A DNA stretch of 64,000 nucleotides from a virus, in the IMG/VR virus record IMGVR_UViG_3300037258_000374, positions 1-64,000 of that record. One strand, written 5' to 3'. Both the position numbers and the translations under genes were made by a program. The notes under the pieces were generated by a model, which worked only from the letters and a program-made list of their open reading frames with translations, had not been told where the DNA came from and did not search any database. Positions 26,503 through 49,244 of this stretch are shown piece after piece (the first letter of the stretch is position 1; every line of letters starts with the position of its first letter).

Positions 26503-26967
26503 GTGAACCATCTCGCCGAATCGGACCGCGCGCGAGCTCGCGCGTACATCGAAGCGCGATCGATCCCGGTCCCGCACTGCGGGTGCCGCCTCTGGCTGCT
26601 CGCGCCGCGCTCGAACGGATACGGAGCAGCGACGTTCAACGGCGAGCAGTGGACGGCCCATTGCCTAGCGTATGAGGCTTGGGTCGGTCCCGTCCCGGAT
26701 GGCGCGCTCCTTGAGCACCGCATTTGCGACGAACGGATGTGCTGCGAGTGGACGCATCTGCGGCCAGGCAGCATCGCGAGCAACATGGACGACGCGGCGC
26801 GGAAGCTGCGGCTTGGGCAGAAGCTGAACGCCGTCCAGGTACGCGCGATCCGCGAGCGCTACGGAGCAGGCGGCGTCATCAGCCTGCGACGGCTCGCGCT
26901 CGAATACCGCGTATCGAAGACGTCGATCGCGATGATCGTTCGCCGCGAGCATTGGAGCTACGCGTGA
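26503..26967 (+). CDS. HNH endonuclease with C-terminal HTH
   Basis: C.LW..GYG..AH.LAYE..H..C...C..HL..N..D. Confidence 0.75.
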   Translation: MNHLAESDRARARAYIEARSIPVPHCGCRLWLLAPRSNGYGAATFNGEQWTAHCLAYEAWVGPVPDGALLEHRICDERMCCEWTHLRPGSIASNMDDAARKLRLGQKLNAVQVRAIRERYGAGGVISLRRLALEYRVSKTSIAMIVRREHWSYA

Positions 26968-27783: not shown

Positions 27784-29666
27784 TGCGGCCGGGCAGCATC
27801 TCGCTCGATGGCGCAGGCGACTTCGTCGTCCGCTGTCCGCCGCACGTCGCGATCAAGCTGCGGCGCGTGTTCGGCGGCGTGCAACGGCGCGGTGCCGGCT
27901 ATTTCACTATCAGCGCGACGTCGGGCAATGCGTACGAGCTGCAGTGGTTCCGGCAGCGGTATCCGCTCGATCTGGAGCAGGACGCGGCCGACAGGTTCGA
28001 AGCTCTGCGCCTAGCCGAGGAGCATCGGCTCGCGTCGATCGCCGAGCTCGAGGCGGCCGACTACATCCCTCGGAAGTTCGATCTCGCGCTGCCGCCGCGC
28101 GAATACCAGCGCGTCGCGGCGGACCTCGCGCTGCGCACGGGCTCGCTGCTGGTCGCCGACGAACTCGGGCTCGGCAAGACGATCACCGCGATCTGCGCGC
28201 TGACGGCGGAGGGCAAGCTGCCGGCGCTCGTCGTGACGATGACGCACCTGCCGAGGCAGTGGGAGGTTCAGCTGCAGAAGTTCGCGCCGTCGCTGCGCGC
28301 GCATCGCATCCGCAAGGGAACGCCGTACGACTTCGCGAAGATCAAGTTCGAGACGGACGCGAGCGGCAAGCGCATGCGCATCCCGCGGCCGGGCATCCCA
28401 GACGTGATCATCTGCAACTACCACAAGCTGTGCGGATGGGCCGATACGCTCGCGCAGCTATGCAGGTCGGTCGTCTTCGACGAGGTCCAGGAGCTTCGGC
28501 ACGCCGGGACGAACAAGTACATCGCGGCGCACGCGATCGCCGGCAGCGTCCCGCTCCGAATCGGGCTGTCGGCGACGCCGATCTACAACTACGGCGCCGA
28601 GATCTACTCGGTCGTCGAGGCGATCGCGCCCGGCGCGCTCGGCACGCGCAAGGAGTTCTACGACGAGTGGTGCGGCGGCGCGAACCCTGGCTCCGACCAG
28701 GACGCCCGGAAGGTCTGCGTCGCGGATCCGGTCGCGCTCGGCACGTATCTGCGCGAGTCCGGCCTCATGATCCGCCGCACGCGGAAGGAGGTCGGTCGCG
28801 AGCTGCCGCCGCTGACCATCGTGCGGCATGCGATCGAGGTCGACCCGGCGCGCATCAACGAAGCGACGGCGGACGTAGCCGAGCTCGCCTCGCGCGTGCT
28901 CGCGCGCACTGGCAGCAACTTCGAGCTGATGAAGTGGTCCGGCGAAATCGACTACCAGATGCGCCAGGCGACCGGCATCGGCAAGGCCGGCGCGGTGATC
29001 GACTTCGTGCGGATGCTCGTCGAGGCCGGTGAGCGCGTGGTGCTCTACGGCTGGCATCATGAGGTCTACGCGCTGTGGCGCTCGGCACTCGACAAGCACG
29101 GCATCTCCTTCGCGATGTACACGGGCAGCGAGAGCGAGACGCAGAAGTCTGATAGCGTGCAGGCGTTCATCGATCACAAGGTCAACGTGCTGATCATCTC
29201 GCTGCGTGCTGGCGCCGGGCTCGACGGGCTGCAGCACGTCAGCCGCACGGTGGTGATCGGCGAGCTCGACTGGTCTCCGCAGGTCCATCAGCAGAACATC
29301 GGCCGCGTCTATCGCGATGGCCAGCTCGAGCCGTGCGTTGCGTACTACCTCGTCGCCGAGGAGGGCAGCGATCCGGTGATCGCCGACGTGCTCGGGCTGA
29401 AGGATGCGCAGGCGACCGGCATCATCGATCCTGATCGCGCGGGCGTCGCGCATCTGGTCGGCTCCTCCGAGAGCCACGTGCGAAAGCTCGCCGTCGAAGT
29501 GCTGCGCCGGCGCGGTATCGAAGTGCCAGACGAACAAGACGACTGCTCGCAAGGCGATGATCGCGGCTGCAGCATGCACGGCGATCCCGGCAATTGCCCA
29601 GCGCCACCGGAGCCGTCGCTCGAACTGGCTCCGCAACTCGGCCTAGCGCTAGGGTCCTCGCGATGA
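27783..29666 (+). CDS. SNF2-family helicase
   Basis: DELGLGKT, DEVQ, SATP, GAGLDGLQ, QNIGRVYRDGQ. Confidence 0.9.
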   Translation: MRPGSISLDGAGDFVVRCPPHVAIKLRRVFGGVQRRGAGYFTISATSGNAYELQWFRQRYPLDLEQDAADRFEALRLAEEHRLASIAELEAADYIPRKFDLALPPREYQRVAADLALRTGSLLVADELGLGKTITAICALTAEGKLPALVVTMTHLPRQWEVQLQKFAPSLRAHRIRKGTPYDFAKIKFETDASGKRMRIPRPGIPDVIICNYHKLCGWADTLAQLCRSVVFDEVQELRHAGTNKYIAAHAIAGSVPLRIGLSATPIYNYGAEIYSVVEAIAPGALGTRKEFYDEWCGGANPGSDQDARKVCVADPVALGTYLRESGLMIRRTRKEVGRELPPLTIVRHAIEVDPARINEATADVAELASRVLARTGSNFELMKWSGEIDYQMRQATGIGKAGAVIDFVRMLVEAGERVVLYGWHHEVYALWRSALDKHGISFAMYTGSESETQKSDSVQAFIDHKVNVLIISLRAGAGLDGLQHVSRTVVIGELDWSPQVHQQNIGRVYRDGQLEPCVAYYLVAEEGSDPVIADVLGLKDAQATGIIDPDRAGVAHLVGSSESHVRKLAVEVLRRRGIEVPDEQDDCSQGDDRGCSMHGDPGNCPAPPEPSLELAPQLGLALGSSR

Positions 29667-43554: not shown

Positions 43555-45759
43555 ATGTCAACCTGGTTCGGTCGCATGTTCGGCCGCCGCGATGCCGCAC
43601 CGCGACAGCTGAGCAGCGGCGAACTCCGGCCGTTCTCGGGCGCGCAGCGCCTCGATTCATTCCTGGCGGAGCGTAGCGACGGATGGGGCAACGTCATCAC
43701 CGGTCTGATGACCGGTCGTGACAAGCGCCGCGGCGCGGTGCAGCAGTACCGGCCGATGGTCGACCTCGAGGCGCGCGAGTGGTGGCTCGGCGACGACATC
43801 GCCAAGCGCATCATCGAGACGCTGCCGAAGCTCGCGATGCATCGCGGCTACGACCTCAAGATCGCCGACGACGAAGACAGGGAGATGTCCGAGCAACTCG
43901 TCGCCAAGATGGAAGATCTGCAGTTCGATCAGAAGGTCACCAAGGCGATGATGATGAAGCGCGCGTACGGGGGCGCCGCGCTGTTCCCGGTCATCGATGG
44001 CGCGCAAGACGATCTGCGCCTGCCGATCGACCTCACCAGGATCCGCAATGTGGTCGCGCTGCATCTGCTCGAACCGCGCGAGCTGCTGCCGACGAGCTGG
44101 TACACCGACCTTCGGAATCCGAAGTTCGGTACGCCCGAACGGTTCATGTTCATCCCGGTGCTCACGGGTGGAGTGCCGCCGCCGCAGACGCTGTCGGAGA
44201 TCCACGAGTCTCGGCTCATCCTGTTCCAGGGCACGAAGGTCAGCCGCCTGTACCAGCCCGGAGATCGCATCGGCTGGGGCGACAGCGTCCTCACGCCGAT
44301 CCGCGACGTGATCATGGACTTCGGGCTCGCGTGGAGCTCGGCGTCTGCGCTGCTGCAGGACTTCGCGCAGGCCGTGCTCAAGATCGAAGGGCTCGCGAAT
44401 CTGATCACCACCGATCAGGACAAGGTCGCGCGCGCGCGCATCGAGCAGATCGACTTCATCCGCTCGGTGATGCGGATGATCGTGATCGACAAGAACGACG
44501 AGTTCTCGCGCGAGGAGACGCCGATCAGCGGGCTCGCGCAGCTGCTCGATCGCTTCTGCGTGCGCATGGCCGCTGGCGCCGACATGCCGATCACATGGCT
44601 GATGGGCCAGTCGCCAGCGGGACTGAATTCGACCGGCGAGAGCGACCGCGAGATCATGTACGACCGCGCGCGCGCCGAGCAGCACGAGACGGAGCCGCAG
44701 ATCGAGCAGGGCATCCGGCTCGTGATGCTCTCGAGTGAGGGTCCTTGCGAAGGCAAAGAGCCCGACGTGTGGGGTATCAACTTCCGACCGCTGAGCTCGC
44801 CGGACGATCAGGACATCGCGAAGACGCACAACCTCGACGCGGTCAGCGATGACTACTACATCAAGAACGGCACGCTCACGACGGACGAGGTGCGCAATCG
44901 CTGGCGCGGCGACAAGTACGGCGACATCCAGCTCGACGACGATGCGTGGCAGAAGCAACAGGACCTGCAAGCGAAGCAGATCGACGCTGCTGCGCGCGCC
45001 GCGCTCAAGGCTCCGGCGGACAGCGCGACCGGCGGCGGCACAGCGCGACCGCTCGACGTGCCGAACGCCGACGGGAAGGTGCAGCCCGGCGACTCCACGC
45101 AGAAGCTACCCGACAGCGACAATGCGCCGGCGCAAGGCGTTACGCCGCTCAACGCCGGGGCCGGCCAAATCATGATCAAGCCGCACGTCCGCAGCATCCC
45201 GAAGCGCGGCGCGATCGCGGCGCCGGTCACCGCCGGCGGCAGCGCGGCTGGACGAGCCGATCGCGATCGGTTCGATGACGAGCTCGCGGACGAGATCGCC
45301 AAGGAGCTAGCCAGCGACTATCCGCCCGAGGCGCTCACGTGGATTCGCTCGATCAAGTGGGAGGGACCGGAGCGCGTCGACCTGGCCGACATCGACTTCT
45401 CGAACGCCGATCAGTGGCAGGCATCGCGCGAGCCGGACAAGGTCGAGAAGTTCGTGCAGCGCATCAACGCCGGATGGTCGAAGCCGATCCTGCTCGTCAA
45501 GCGGCCCGGGATGGACAAGCTGATGATCGTCGATGGCCACCATCGCGCGCTCGCGTATCAGAAGCTCGGCCGCCGCGTCATCGCATTCGTGGGCACCGCG
45601 ACGAGCAACGTCGGGCCCTGGGATGACTTCCACAATTCGCAGCGGAGCAGCCCGGATAAGCAGATCCAGCGCGCAGCAATGACGAACGGAACCGCCGCAG
45701 CGCCATCCACCGACACTGCGGCACCGATGGCGCAACCGGTCGCGTCGTCGATGAGGTAA
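43555..45759 (+). CDS. Portal protein (DUF1073 type) with C-terminal ParB-like domain
   Basis: YGGA, IHESRL, GWGDSVL, GQSPAGLNSTGESD; C-terminal IVDGHHR. Confidence 0.85.
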   Translation: MSTWFGRMFGRRDAAPRQLSSGELRPFSGAQRLDSFLAERSDGWGNVITGLMTGRDKRRGAVQQYRPMVDLEAREWWLGDDIAKRIIETLPKLAMHRGYDLKIADDEDREMSEQLVAKMEDLQFDQKVTKAMMMKRAYGGAALFPVIDGAQDDLRLPIDLTRIRNVVALHLLEPRELLPTSWYTDLRNPKFGTPERFMFIPVLTGGVPPPQTLSEIHESRLILFQGTKVSRLYQPGDRIGWGDSVLTPIRDVIMDFGLAWSSASALLQDFAQAVLKIEGLANLITTDQDKVARARIEQIDFIRSVMRMIVIDKNDEFSREETPISGLAQLLDRFCVRMAAGADMPITWLMGQSPAGLNSTGESDREIMYDRARAEQHETEPQIEQGIRLVMLSSEGPCEGKEPDVWGINFRPLSSPDDQDIAKTHNLDAVSDDYYIKNGTLTTDEVRNRWRGDKYGDIQLDDDAWQKQQDLQAKQIDAAARAALKAPADSATGGGTARPLDVPNADGKVQPGDSTQKLPDSDNAPAQGVTPLNAGAGQIMIKPHVRSIPKRGAIAAPVTAGGSAAGRADRDRFDDELADEIAKELASDYPPEALTWIRSIKWEGPERVDLADIDFSNADQWQASREPDKVEKFVQRINAGWSKPILLVKRPGMDKLMIVDGHHRALAYQKLGRRVIAFVGTATSNVGPWDDFHNSQRSSPDKQIQRAAMTNGTAAAPSTDTAAPMAQPVASSMR

Positions 45760-45763
45760 CCGA

Positions 45764-47677
45764 GTGGTCGCGAAGGCCATCAAGCCGCTCAAGCTGTCGC
45801 AGCTGTCGCCGGACGGACAACGGTTGCACCGTCTCGTCCACATGCACCGCTCGATCGGAACCGCGTCGGCTCCGACACTGATCCCGCGCGTGCAGTATCC
45901 GCACGCGCTCGAAGTGAGCTACGCGAATCAGCTCGTCGGGATGATCACGGTCGCCCGCGAGGCCACCAAGCCAGCGATGGACCAGCTCGGCAAGCTGCTC
46001 GATAGCGCCCGCGCCGCGCGCGGTGACGCCGACGATCCATCGCCGTCCCGGCAGCAGTGGTACGCCGGGCTGCCGGTCGTAGTCGAGAATCCTGCCGGCA
46101 GTGTGCGCCGTTGGACCGACGAGCACGACAACACGACCGGCGAGACGCGTATGCACTACGCGTACGGCTATATCGACGGCGTGCGCGGAGCCGATGGCGA
46201 AGATGTCGACTGCTATCTCGGGCCCGACGAGAACGCGCCGTGGGTCTACATCGTCCGGCAGCTACGGCCGCAGCAGGCCGAGCCTGACAAGGGCCTTGGT
46301 GATCGACGGGGGTTTGACCTTCAAGCGACGCGCGATCTCAGCGCGTGTGAGCCCTCGGCCGAAGAGCTCGACCAGCTTCGCGCGATCGAAGCGCAGTTTT
46401 CGTGGCGGAGCGGAGGTGGAGTATCCGCGGCGCTTGAGCACGCGGTTGATCGCGCTATCGCTAACGCCAAAATGGCGCGCGATGCTGGCAATGGTGGCGC
46501 CCTTAGCGCGGAGGCGAAGTGCTTTCTGGATGTCCCAGAGGCGAGGTCCTCCGTGCTCGCGTCGATGGTCGGCTTGCTTCATGACGCTAAGATTCGAGAT
46601 GTCGTTGTTGAGACCGTTCCCGTCGATATGGTGAACGATCTCATCTCGAGAAAGACTTCGCCCGAGCGAGCGCTCCATGACTACGCGGTGCTCCAGGCGC
46701 TGGCGTCCGCAATCGTAGATGAGGCGATAGAGCGTGTCACCACCGAGCCTTCGAACGTGTCCATTCTTGCGCGGCCTGCCCATGAAGCCGACCATAACTC
46801 ATCATCGTTGCCGTGGGTCTTTGACGAGCAAAAGATCATGCTTGGATTTTCGAGCGCAGACATCGCGAAGGCGGCCTACCTGCTCCAGTACGATGATCCG
46901 AAGTTCTACGGCGGGATGACCGTCATGTCGCTCGACGACTTCAAAGCCGAACTCGCCGAGCACACGGGCGGCATGATCTCGCACAGAGATTCGGCTCCGC
47001 GCGCATGGCGCATGGACGCCGGCGAAGGAGCTCGAGCGCGCGCGCTGATCGAGGGAGCTCGGCTGAGGTTGACGGATGCGATCCATCCGAATCGCGTCGA
47101 CGCGATCGCAACGAAGTTCGCCAAGCAGACGAGCGATTGGCAGCGAATGCAGCTACGCCGACAGGCGAAGGCCGCGCTCGGCATCGACGTCACGACGACC
47201 GACACCAACATCCCGGCGCTCATCGAGCACTTCGTCTCGGAGAACGTCTCGCTGATCAAGTCATTCGGCAACAAGACGATGGACGATGTCGAGAAGATCG
47301 TCACGCGCGCCATCACGAGCGGCCGCCAGACCGAGGATGTAGCGAAGGACATCGGCGATCGATTCGACATCGGTGAGCGGCACGCTCGGATGATCGCGCG
47401 AGATCAGATCGGCAAGCTCAACGGCCAGATCAGCGCGACTCGGCACCGCGAGCTCGGCCTGCGCCGATTCATCTGGCGCACGGTCGGCGACGACCGCGTG
47501 CGCGACGAGCATACCGACCTGCAAGAGGAGAGCGAGTCGGAGCCGTTCGAATACGGCGATCCGCCGGACACCGACGACGGCCCGGCGATGCCAGGCGAGC
47601 CCATCCTTTGTCGTTGCAGCGACGAGCCGGTGTATGCCGACATCACGGATCCATCCGGCGAAGACGACAACGACTGA
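45764..47677 (+). CDS. Head morphogenesis protein (MuF/SPP1 gp7) with N-terminal inorganic-pyrophosphatase-like domain and insertion
   Basis: IARDQIGKLNG, WRTVGDDRVRDEH, PG.PILCRC; ENPAGSVR..YGYI..GADGEDVD..FDEQKIMLGF. Confidence 0.8.
   Translation: MVAKAIKPLKLSQLSPDGQRLHRLVHMHRSIGTASAPTLIPRVQYPHALEVSYANQLVGMITVAREATKPAMDQLGKLLDSARAARGDADDPSPSRQQWYAGLPVVVENPAGSVRRWTDEHDNTTGETRMHYAYGYIDGVRGADGEDVDCYLGPDENAPWVYIVRQLRPQQAEPDKGLGDRRGFDLQATRDLSACEPSAEELDQLRAIEAQFSWRSGGGVSAALEHAVDRAIANAKMARDAGNGGALSAEAKCFLDVPEARSSVLASMVGLLHDAKIRDVVVETVPVDMVNDLISRKTSPERALHDYAVLQALASAIVDEAIERVTTEPSNVSILARPAHEADHNSSSLPWVFDEQKIMLGFSSADIAKAAYLLQYDDPKFYGGMTVMSLDDFKAELAEHTGGMISHRDSAPRAWRMDAGEGARARALIEGARLRLTDAIHPNRVDAIATKFAKQTSDWQRMQLRRQAKAALGIDVTTTDTNIPALIEHFVSENVSLIKSFGNKTMDDVEKIVTRAITSGRQTEDVAKDIGDRFDIGERHARMIARDQIGKLNGQISATRHRELGLRRFIWRTVGDDRVRDEHTDLQEESESEPFEYGDPPDTDDGPAMPGEPILCRCSDEPVYADITDPSGEDDND
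46262..46795 (-). CDS. HNH homing endonuclease with two HTH motifs, antisense within the MuF gene
   Basis: EHRVVME..LGR.L..EIVHHIDGN.LNN.ISNL. Confidence 0.85.
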   Translation of the reverse strand: MVGFMGRPRKNGHVRRLGGDTLYRLIYDCGRQRLEHRVVMERSLGRSLSRDEIVHHIDGNGLNNDISNLSVMKQADHRREHGGPRLWDIQKALRLRAKGATIASIARHFGVSDSAINRVLKRRGYSTSAPPRKLRFDRAKLVELFGRGLTRAEIARRLKVKPPSITKALVRLGLLRP

Positions 47678-47756
47678 CCGGAACGCTCGACGGTAAACGG
47701 TCGCCTGAACCTGAGGGTCTTGTTCCCGGAACGGTGTTGGTGTTAGCGTGCTCTTC

Positions 47757-49244
47757 GTGTTCGGTTTCCGAACTGATGTAGCAACGCTCCGGCCCCCTAA
47801 GCGCATGCCCGATGGAAGGCTGCGCTTCGATGCGTTCATCACGAAGCCCGGCGTCTTCGAGTATGCCGACCCGACGTATCCGGGCGGCATTCGTCGCGAG
47901 CTCCGTGACGATCGCGAGGTGTACTCGCAGCGCACGATGGAATCGTTCGCGCAGGTTCCGGTCACGCATGGTCATCCGCCGACCATGCTCAATGCCGAGA
48001 ACGCGAAGTACCACATGGTCGGCAGCACGGGCGATCAGGTGCAGCGCCTGTCGCCTGGCGTGGGCGAGCCGGACCATCTCGCGACCTCGGGCATGGTCGC
48101 CGACCGCGCGACGATCGATGCGATGGAGTCGGGCGACACCGAGGTCAGCTGCGGCTACGGCTGCGCGATCGACGAGACGCCGGGCACGCATCCGGTGTAC
48201 GGCAAGTACGACTGCGTTCAGAGCAATATCATCGGCAATCATCTCGCGGTGGCGGTCGGTCGCGGCCGCGCAGGTCGCACGGCGCGCGCGCGCATGGATG
48301 CCGAACTCACCGCAGACGAGCGTAACAAGCTTCGCGATTCGCAGTTCGCAGTTCCCAGCACCGGTCAGCTGCCGATCAACGACGAAGCGCACACGCGCGC
48401 GGCGATGTCTCGCTACAACCAAACCGACTTCCCGTCAGCCGCGGCGAAGAAGACGGCCTACGACAAGATTTGCGCGGCGGCGAAAAAGTTCGGCATCGAC
48501 TCGACGGACTTCGAGAAGAAGTACGGCGGGGACGATCGGGCCGATTCACATCAACGAGGAGCCAGTATGGCGGACGAGAAGAAGAACGAGACCACGACCA
48601 CCACCACCGCTCCCGCCGGCGACATGTCGATCGCCGTGCTCGGCCACAAGCTGCGCGACGCCGAGACGCGCGCCGACGCTGCCGACCGCGCGCGCGACGA
48701 AGCCGTGACCGCTCGCCAGCACGCCGAGGGCAAGGTCAAGACGCTCGAGGAGCAGATCGTCGATCTGCGCACCCAGGTCTCGGCCCGCGTCGACGCGACC
48801 GAGACGGCCGCCATCACCGCGATGCGCGAGCGCGCGCAGACGGCCGAGGCTGCGGTCTCGCACTTCGACTCGCGCTTCGACGCAGCGGTCAAGCAGCGCG
48901 TCTTGATCGTCGCGAAGGCGCAGGCGTACCTCGGCCCGAAGTTCCGCTTCGACGACATGAGCGAGCGCCAGATCATGGCGGCCGTCGTGTCGAAGCTGAA
49001 CCCCAAGGCCGACGTGAGCGCGAAGGTTCCCGACGGCGAGATCAAGGGCCGCTTCGATGCCGAGACCGAGCGCGAAGACGGCTATGCGCAGAGCCTCGCG
49101 CGTTCGGCCGAGGTGCTCGCGGCCAACGTCACCGAGAAGCCGCGCACCGACGCGAAGTCCCAGTCGCAGGAGACGCTGCGCAACCTCTGGAAGCAGCCGC
49201 TTCCCAACGACATCCGTGCCGCGCACATCGCCGGCGGAAAGTGA
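47757..49244 (+). CDS. DUF2213 prohead protease/scaffold
   Basis: GVFEY, PVTHGHP, EVSCGY, NHLAV..GRAG; coiled-coil tail. Confidence 0.85.
   Translation: MFGFRTDVATLRPPKRMPDGRLRFDAFITKPGVFEYADPTYPGGIRRELRDDREVYSQRTMESFAQVPVTHGHPPTMLNAENAKYHMVGSTGDQVQRLSPGVGEPDHLATSGMVADRATIDAMESGDTEVSCGYGCAIDETPGTHPVYGKYDCVQSNIIGNHLAVAVGRGRAGRTARARMDAELTADERNKLRDSQFAVPSTGQLPINDEAHTRAAMSRYNQTDFPSAAAKKTAYDKICAAAKKFGIDSTDFEKKYGGDDRADSHQRGASMADEKKNETTTTTTAPAGDMSIAVLGHKLRDAETRADAADRARDEAVTARQHAEGKVKTLEEQIVDLRTQVSARVDATETAAITAMRERAQTAEAAVSHFDSRFDAAVKQRVLIVAKAQAYLGPKFRFDDMSERQIMAAVVSKLNPKADVSAKVPDGEIKGRFDAETEREDGYAQSLARSAEVLAANVTEKPRTDAKSQSQETLRNLWKQPLPNDIRAAHIAGGK

Follow-up and report, generated by a model that had tools for sequence, protein, structure and literature searches.

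The window analyzed here comprises the first 64 kb (64,000 nucleotides) of IMG/VR virus record IMGVR_UViG_3300037258_000374, a complete 74.8-kb phage genome with direct terminal repeats (CheckV 100%) and a GC content of 65%. Within it, a gene for a head-morphogenesis protein that joins an InPase (pyrophosphatase) domain to a MuF domain contains an in-frame insert of 186 codons, and the opposite strand of this insert encodes a predicted HNH homing endonuclease. The interrupted gene is flanked by a portal gene (Phage_portal_3) and a DUF2213 gene. Its features, as read on the plus strand, are as follows.

45764..47677, plus strand: host gene, InPase-MuF head-morphogenesis (polyvalent-type) protein of 637 amino acids; a single open reading frame (ORF) across the insert
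46061..46282, plus strand: N-terminal half of InPase, profile positions 16-88, ending in the strand PWVYIVRQ (Pfam; modeled at a predicted local distance difference test score [pLDDT] of 88-98)
46262..46819, plus strand: insert of 186 codons, residues 167-352, placed by alignment with insert-less homologs
46820..46951, plus strand: C-terminal half of InPase, profile positions 89-133, beginning FDEQKIMLGF and carrying the invariant D354, E355, and K357 (modeled at pLDDT 94-98)
47285..47620, plus strand: Phage_Mu_F domain, downstream of the insert (Pfam)

Pfam recognized InPase (PF18823) in the 637-residue protein in two stretches (8.9e-28; score 97.3 bits, cut-off 26.8) and, at residues 508-619, Phage_Mu_F (5.3e-14), and the PHROGs label for the product is head morphogenesis. 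In a six-frame search of the genome, profile positions 16-88 of InPase matched 46061-46282 and profile positions 89-133 matched 46820-46951. The cut thus falls cleanly between adjacent profile positions 88 and 89, with the final 7 codons of the N-terminal match falling inside the insert. The family-invariant InPase residues E108, D144, D149, D354, E355, and K357 are all retained. No other InPase or MuF gene exists in the complete phage genome, so the interrupted gene has no back-up. The Phage_Mu_F domain can be reached only by in-frame translation past the insert.

The original prediction for this locus had described an HNH gene hidden antisense inside a head morphogenesis gene, a pyrophosphatase-like domain split by about 180 codons, and a plus frame free of stops across the insert. 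All of this describes the locus correctly: the HNH ORF (46262..46795, minus strand) lies wholly within the host ORF, the split measures 186 codons at InPase profile position 88/89, and the plus frame is one ORF of 637 codons.

The insert occupies a β-hairpin loop of the InPase domain

The junctions were defined at the protein level, by alignment with the insert-less homologs P0002-P0009, the comparison that the original prediction had suggested. These homologs include P0002 (473 amino acids, 83% identical) and P0003 (459 amino acids, 68% identical), among others. Residues 167-352 of the window's protein stand where the homologs have an 8-residue loop, for example TKAPAFDE, flanked by the motifs PWVYIV[HR]Q before and [YF]DE[DQ]K[VI]MLGF after. 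The replaced segment is a β-hairpin loop of InPase. Over the 65 residues past the insert, identity to P0002 drops to 57-70%. This dip could mark a co-conversion tract, but the same stretch is also more variable in comparison with P0003.

When residues 90-410 were modeled using AlphaFold 2 (AF2), the two InPase halves (pLDDT ~88-98) came together as one pyrophosphatase core, and the insert departed from the turn that joins the strands at model residues 71-80 and 262-271. With VIA-align, the top 50 rows were all family I pyrophosphatases (Z 6.5-7.1; 107-122 residues aligned), and the alignments extended over model residues 8-315, that is, over both InPase halves.

Read in the host frame, the insert is acidic (net charge of -10) and rich in Ala, Leu, Ser, and Val. 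It was predicted by AF2 to be helical, with low to middling confidence, and it had no Pfam match at E ≤ 10. A region-restricted search of 5.8 billion proteins with the host-frame insert returned the query alone, and aligned host-frame insert peptides, used to scan IMG/VR, gave no confirmed locus. The only sequencing run that contains the window's DNA is a soil metagenome, its probable source, where it is present as contigs; no insert-skipping contig was found in that run, and no RNA run is listed as containing the sequence.

The opposite strand of the insert encodes an I-HmuI-like HNH protein

On the minus strand, the insert and its immediate flank carry the following features.

46262..46795, minus strand: predicted HNH homing-endonuclease ORF, 177 amino acids from the first ATG, wholly within the plus-strand ORF
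46559..46690, minus strand: HNH_3 catalytic core, EHR...VHHIDGNGLNN..NL...H...H, with all family-invariant residues present
46430..46528, minus strand: first helix-turn-helix (HTH), HTH_23, residues 90-122 (Pfam, 3.3e-11)
46280..46360, minus strand: second HTH, residues 146-172 (MarR/HTH-like matches)
46791..46796, minus strand: -10-like hexamer TATGGT, 7 nt before the ATG at 46783, a candidate promoter

The minus-strand protein matched HNH_3 (PF13392) above its Pfam cut-off (1.1e-9) and PHROG 59, HNH endonuclease (4e-18). Its AF2 model (pLDDT 85) has helical triplets at the HTH modules. The best structural match of this model in the PDB was I-HmuI (1u3e; probability 0.92, 142 columns), and there were also paired-domain/Tc3-like structural matches. 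A profile search of the PDB by sequence matched the HTH part alone. The HNH family to which the protein belongs consists mostly of proteins of 170-200 amino acids that are 45-70% identical to one another and share 33 invariant residues, including the catalytic ones; the window copy has all 33. These matches bear out the earlier description of an intact HNH with two HTH motifs and identify the minus-strand ORF as a putative I-HmuI-like HNH homing endonuclease with two DNA-binding HTH modules, for which cleavage activity is predicted. The window's own HNH protein was absent from the matches returned among 5.8 billion clustered proteins.

The true start of the HNH gene is likely the ATG at 46783, which would yield 173 amino acids beginning MGRPRK..., the consensus N-terminus of the family. 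Most relatives begin at the position of this second ATG (MGRP...). At the other end, the host frame reads the TAG stop (46264-46262) as CTA (Leu167). Within the insert, the GC content at third positions of the minus frame (0.73) is higher than that at first positions (0.66), opposite to the pattern in the flanks; the minus frame is therefore the frame that coding has shaped.

A TANNNT hexamer followed after 6 or 7 nt by a start codon (ATG or GTG) occurs at only 36 sites in the window, both strands counted, and would be expected by chance at a given start codon in ~0.3% of cases. This layout precedes ~18 other coding-like genes of the phage, including the portal gene, which suggests that the phage makes leaderless transcripts. 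Examples are the sites at 29663, 33864, 36536, 43555, 47757, and, on the minus strand, 46783, and TAGGGT recurs at gene starts. TATGGT could accordingly be the promoter of a leaderless HNH mRNA. A scan for sigma-70 promoters and terminators found a single promoter-like site, inside the HNH ORF, and none upstream of it. An ACGATGA(G) motif was also seen 10-20 nt ahead of the HNH start, both in the window (46796-46815, minus strand) and at two loci carrying relatives (L125:3975-4000 and L126:755-782).

Relatives of the HNH gene share its antisense, codon-aligned layout

The plus and minus frames of the insert lie in one codon register [(46262-45764) mod 3 = 0]. In this arrangement, the HNH codons TTA, CTA, and TCA would be read as stops in the host frame; the window's HNH gene contains none of these stop-mimic codons, all of which can be replaced by synonyms. 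As the constraint is confined to three single codons with synonyms, an in-register antisense position is the cheapest overlap available. The in-register antisense frame is open in 37% of 177-codon stretches taken from the phage's own genes; for the remaining antisense registers, the figures are 2% and 0%. When synonymous codons were redrawn according to the usage of the phage, 21% were open, and the codon usage of the host gene gives a probability of 0.32 that no stop-mimic codon occurs in the window's gene. With 20-37% of stretches open by chance, the stop-free frame in the window is not improbable on its own, and its significance comes from the relatives.

DNA was available for 12 full-length relatives, among them L125, L126, L127 (=L283), L128 (=L204), L129, L130, L131, L133, L203, L205, and L284; L205 is a prophage in Aromatoleum anaerobium. 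In all 12, the HNH gene runs antisense to an open frame, shares its register (register 0), and contains no stop-mimic codon. Seven of the 12 are embedded in ORFs that continue without a break for 2,100-2,540 codons. The GC content of these genes ranges from 0.32 to 0.62. For L128 (GC 0.38), the probability of having no stop-mimic codon is 9e-5 given host codon usage, and the product over 11 loci is ~1e-14, a value that assumes near-independent codon choice among relatives that are 40-55% identical in protein. As a control, we used 54 free-standing HNH_3 genes, which are more distant: only 5 of these are free of stop-mimic codons, and 3.7% of the codons in the set are antisense stops. In family members embedded in unbroken genes, the host frame is nearly free of Cys and contains few aromatic residues. 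The original prediction had proposed a selfish element tolerated through double-strand coding; the relatives support this reading, and the window taken alone does not, as its open frame could be luck.

Several relatives are also positioned next to InPase-coding DNA. In L127, L129, L131, L125, and L128, the element lies 8-20 residues past a complete InPase domain in polyvalent proteins, and in L130, L133, L205, and L284 there is no InPase match near it. Much of the HNH family thus appears to track InPase-coding DNA, with these four members as exceptions. A search with the HNH profile of 401 genomes from the order of Aromatoleum gave 2 matches and no new same-site carrier.

The host reading frame is not continuous in all of these loci. 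On the minus strand of L125 (3959-4546) and L128 (3962-4570), the host polyvalent gene is broken at the HNH gene. The antisense frame is still open there, as a separate ORF of ~200 codons with ATGA-type overlaps with the flanking ORFs. These two loci may represent translationally coupled "genes in pieces" or may reflect assembly frameshifts.

Two further observations concern codon content. The HNH ORFs of L125, L128, and L203 have a GC content at third positions of 0.22-0.32, far below that of their hosts, and a strong preference for CTT as the Leu codon; in the host frame, CTT becomes AAG (Lys). A more distant HNH_3 gene, L139:2765-4339 (GC 0.62), has an in-register antisense open frame of 524 codons with no stop-mimic codons, which may be another nested case or chance.

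The same InPase loop is occupied in proteins of other architectures

A phmmer search of 1.84 billion representative proteins identified six (P0073, P0078, P0084, P0085, P0098, and P0104) that align across the insert in one stretch. In these six carriers, Pfam splits InPase at profile positions 84-92. Their architectures are Portal_Mu-InPase (two proteins), Phage_portal_3-InPase, InPase-RadC, InPase-PBECR3-ART, and InPase alone. Despite being only 36-44% identical over the aligned region, they keep every invariant residue in both InPase halves.

The presence of an antisense HNH gene in the six carriers was inferred from their protein sequences, by codon compatibility. Opposite the conserved HNH positions, 43-45 of 45 host residues are compatible with an antisense HNH codon; with shuffled positions, compatibility averaged 19% and reached a maximum of 42%. 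The six carriers therefore appear to hold an antisense, in-register HNH at the same loop. Occupancy of this one site is sporadic, with empty alleles in P0002 and P0003 and occupied ones in the window and the six carriers.

Alignment of the carriers also delimits a short segment beyond the HNH ORF.

46796..46819, no strand assigned: eight codons, NSSSLPWV in the host frame, from the HNH start region to the resumption of InPase (carrier alignment)

On the minus strand, this segment flanks the element at its 5' side, and WV[YF] within it is common to most carriers. An exact 11-bp direct repeat, GCCGTGGGTCT, at 46237-46247 and 46810-46820 brackets the insert, with each copy encoding P-W-V. We considered this repeat as a target-site duplication and rejected it. 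The first copy lies upstream of the host residues YIVRQ, which are themselves unrepeated, and most other carriers have the downstream W-V-[YF] without an upstream PWV. The repeat is most likely a coincidence of two P-W-V codings under strong codon bias.

The insert lacks intron and intein signatures

No Rfam 15 family was detected at E ≤ 10 on either strand of 45000-48000. In the host frame, the insert had no Hint or intein match (Pfam, E ≤ 10), and its AF2 model is helical rather than a Hint β fold. Its first residue is Leu167, not Cys, Ser, or Thr. These results agree with the original prediction, which had seen no intron or intein scaffold.

The same prediction had noted that the insert ends in HN-S, as inteins do. 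The residues are present (H344, N345, and S346), and we rejected their intein-like meaning: H344 is encoded by CAT, the complement of the first HNH ATG, so the junction is a by-product of the HNH start region, and it is not conserved in the six other carriers. The maintained register and the avoidance of stop-mimic codons also argue against splicing, including by a ribozyme of an undescribed kind, since a spliced element would have no reason for either. Translation of MuF from a separate downstream start, with a dead upstream part, is unlikely in this phage, since no invariant residue is missing from either InPase half, here or in the six carriers.

A probable homing element that the host would translate through

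We consider it probable that the locus is an HNH homing gene seated in the InPase loop of a MuF gene, with the host translating straight through it and no splicing. In this model, a mobile I-HmuI-like HNH gene would have inserted into the DNA for an InPase β-hairpin loop of the phage's only MuF gene. Because the HNH gene lies antisense, in register, and without TTA, CTA, or TCA, the host frame stays open, and translation would yield a 637-residue protein from whose pyrophosphatase fold the acidic 186-residue passenger, helical for the most part or disordered, loops out, with neither RNA nor protein splicing of the insert. The nuclease would be made from its own minus-strand transcript, probably leaderless and directed by the TATGGT located 7 nt before the ATG at 46783. 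The element would spread when insert-less InPase-coding DNA is cut and then repaired from an insert-bearing copy.

Four points weigh against this model. The open host frame in the window alone is expected by chance about one time in three once the register is given. The passenger segment was modeled by AF2 at a pLDDT of only 31-80. An insertion of 186 residues beside the active-site DE.K motif may well disable the pyrophosphatase. Finally, the hosts of L125 and L128 are split, so read-through into a single polypeptide is not universal.

Beyond the single locus, we lean toward a broader reading, in which this HNH lineage is specialized for a backwards, codon-in-register life in coding genes and a sub-lineage homes to the InPase loop in whatever protein it occurs, an essential head protein included. 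Synonymous codon choice in such a lineage may keep the host frame open, which may amount to a third route into genes beside introns and inteins.

The first alternative is an accident without any dual-coding adaptation: the HNH gene landed by luck in the one permissive register of a high-GC gene and destroyed the activity of a dispensable InPase part, and the passenger is unselected junk that ribosomes still cross to reach the essential MuF. An open frame has a probability of ~0.2-0.37 in this phage, and 3 of 7 control HNH genes with a GC content of at least 0.58 also lack stop-mimic codons. The absence of a Pfam match and the weak AF2 model of the passenger, as well as the position of the most pronounced divergence from P0002 in the C-terminal half of InPase (57-70% identity versus 93-100% in the MuF part), fit this account too. 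However, the family lacks stop-mimic codons at GC contents of 0.32-0.55, where chance fails, and Cys and aromatic residues are scarce in the host frame of the embedded members. Moreover, no InPase invariant residue has been lost from either half, whether in the window or in the six carriers, whose identity over the aligned region is just 36-44%. We therefore regard a lucky landing as unlikely.

It is more doubtful still that the HNH gene is a domesticated phage gene, such as a packaging-associated or regulatory nuclease, placed antisense for timing. Its location between a portal gene and a scaffold/protease-like gene is suggestive, as a passage in PMC3592412 describes HNH proteins beside terminase or portal genes as needed for cos cleavage in some phages, and the gene is intact with a phage-type start signal. 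Against this, close relatives of the host gene have no HNH, relatives of the element reside in giant polyvalent genes of unrelated phages, and the HNH with tandem HTH modules matches homing enzymes of the I-HmuI type. The occupation of one InPase loop in the window and in six proteins of other architectures indicates that a DNA target is being tracked rather than a packaging module.

Removal of the insert before function, whether by an unrecognized self-splicing RNA, by protein splicing, or in a two-piece gene with a downstream MuF start, is very improbable: the terminal HN-S, the in-frame ATG (M359) just past the insert, and the ATGA-type overlaps at the split L125 and L128 host genes would suit it, but no Rfam or Hint signature was found at E ≤ 10, the insert starts with Leu and its HN-S is unconserved among carriers, splicing would void the need for the register and the stop-mimic avoidance seen in 12 of 12 relatives with DNA, and the 45-residue C-terminal half of InPase would not stay conserved if translated apart from the N-terminal half.

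Relation to known systems

To our knowledge, homing endonuclease genes (HEGs) are thought to enter coding genes only under the cover of a self-splicing intron or intein and otherwise to stay between genes. An exception was described in 2025 as the ShiLan domain, or "hidden HNH" elements, in mycobacteriophage DNA methylase genes (Arsenault, Gosselin and Gogarten 2025, PMC11855218). The element in the window resembles ShiLan in several respects: an HNH gene occupies a conserved site within a protein-coding host gene, no stop interrupts the host frame, intron and intein features are lacking, the distribution among close relatives is disjunct, and predictions show the insert looping out from the fold of the host. 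The two differ in orientation and host. The ShiLan HNH is on the same strand and out of frame, whereas the window's is on the opposite strand and in register, for which it would need an antisense transcript of its own. The ShiLan host is a methylase, and here it is an InPase domain in head, portal, and polyvalent proteins. The antisense form is not mentioned in the ShiLan paper (PMC11855218), and our literature search turned up no description of a phage protein gene that contains an antisense, in-frame HNH. The locus is thus a mirror image of the 2025 same-strand, out-of-frame exception, with the nuclease gene antisense and codon-aligned.

Phages carry free-standing HNH homing endonucleases such as I-HmuI, and HEG insertion can leave "genes in pieces," as with mobE in nrdA of Aeromonas phage Aeh1. 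The window's HNH shares with the I-HmuI type an HNH core joined to a C-terminal HTH DNA-binding part, as well as insertion at or in conserved genes without a ribozyme. Free-standing HNH genes and genes in pieces lie between genes or split the host and are usually co-oriented with it, whereas the host ORF here is continuous. Only the relatives L125 and L128 resemble the split form; the window's gene is a single ORF of 637 codons.

Like inteins and group I introns that carry an HEG, the element is a probably selfish nuclease gene at a conserved, critical host site that would exact little cost from the host. Unlike them, it has no splicing apparatus that we could find, and the cost would be avoided by translating through the element. 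Introns have no need for register or for stop avoidance. Antisense HEGs are known in nuclear rDNA group I introns, according to a passage in PMC9548176.

Polyvalent proteins with InPase and MuF domains were described by Iyer et al. 2017 (PMC5512222). The window's host protein conforms to that description, in which a type I InPase domain with an OB fold is joined to MuF, portal, or other effector domains. A nested nuclease gene is not part of the architecture described there: the words "antisense," "homing," and "opposite" are absent from PMC5512222, and its single mention of HNH concerns GmrSD.

The element occupies a compact, catalytic fold in a virion protein that is essential, rather than a flexible linker. 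The insertion site is defined (InPase profile position 88/89), empty alleles occur in nature, and there are seven host proteins of differing architecture, which opens homing, antisense expression, and loop tolerance to experiment. Gene callers report the host ORF only, so that antisense nucleases of this kind go unseen and host proteins appear to have unexplained "domains."

Other features of the window

A second HNH_3 gene, encoding 154 amino acids, is located at 26503-26967 on the plus strand. This gene is free-standing, co-oriented with its neighbors, and not in a long antisense ORF.

At 44850-45759 on the plus strand, the portal protein has a C-terminal extension of ~300 residues past Phage_portal_3, and this extension has no Pfam match. 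A ParB-like motif considered there found no support in Pfam. In other phages, an InPase domain bearing this HNH insert is joined to the portal protein where the extension lies.

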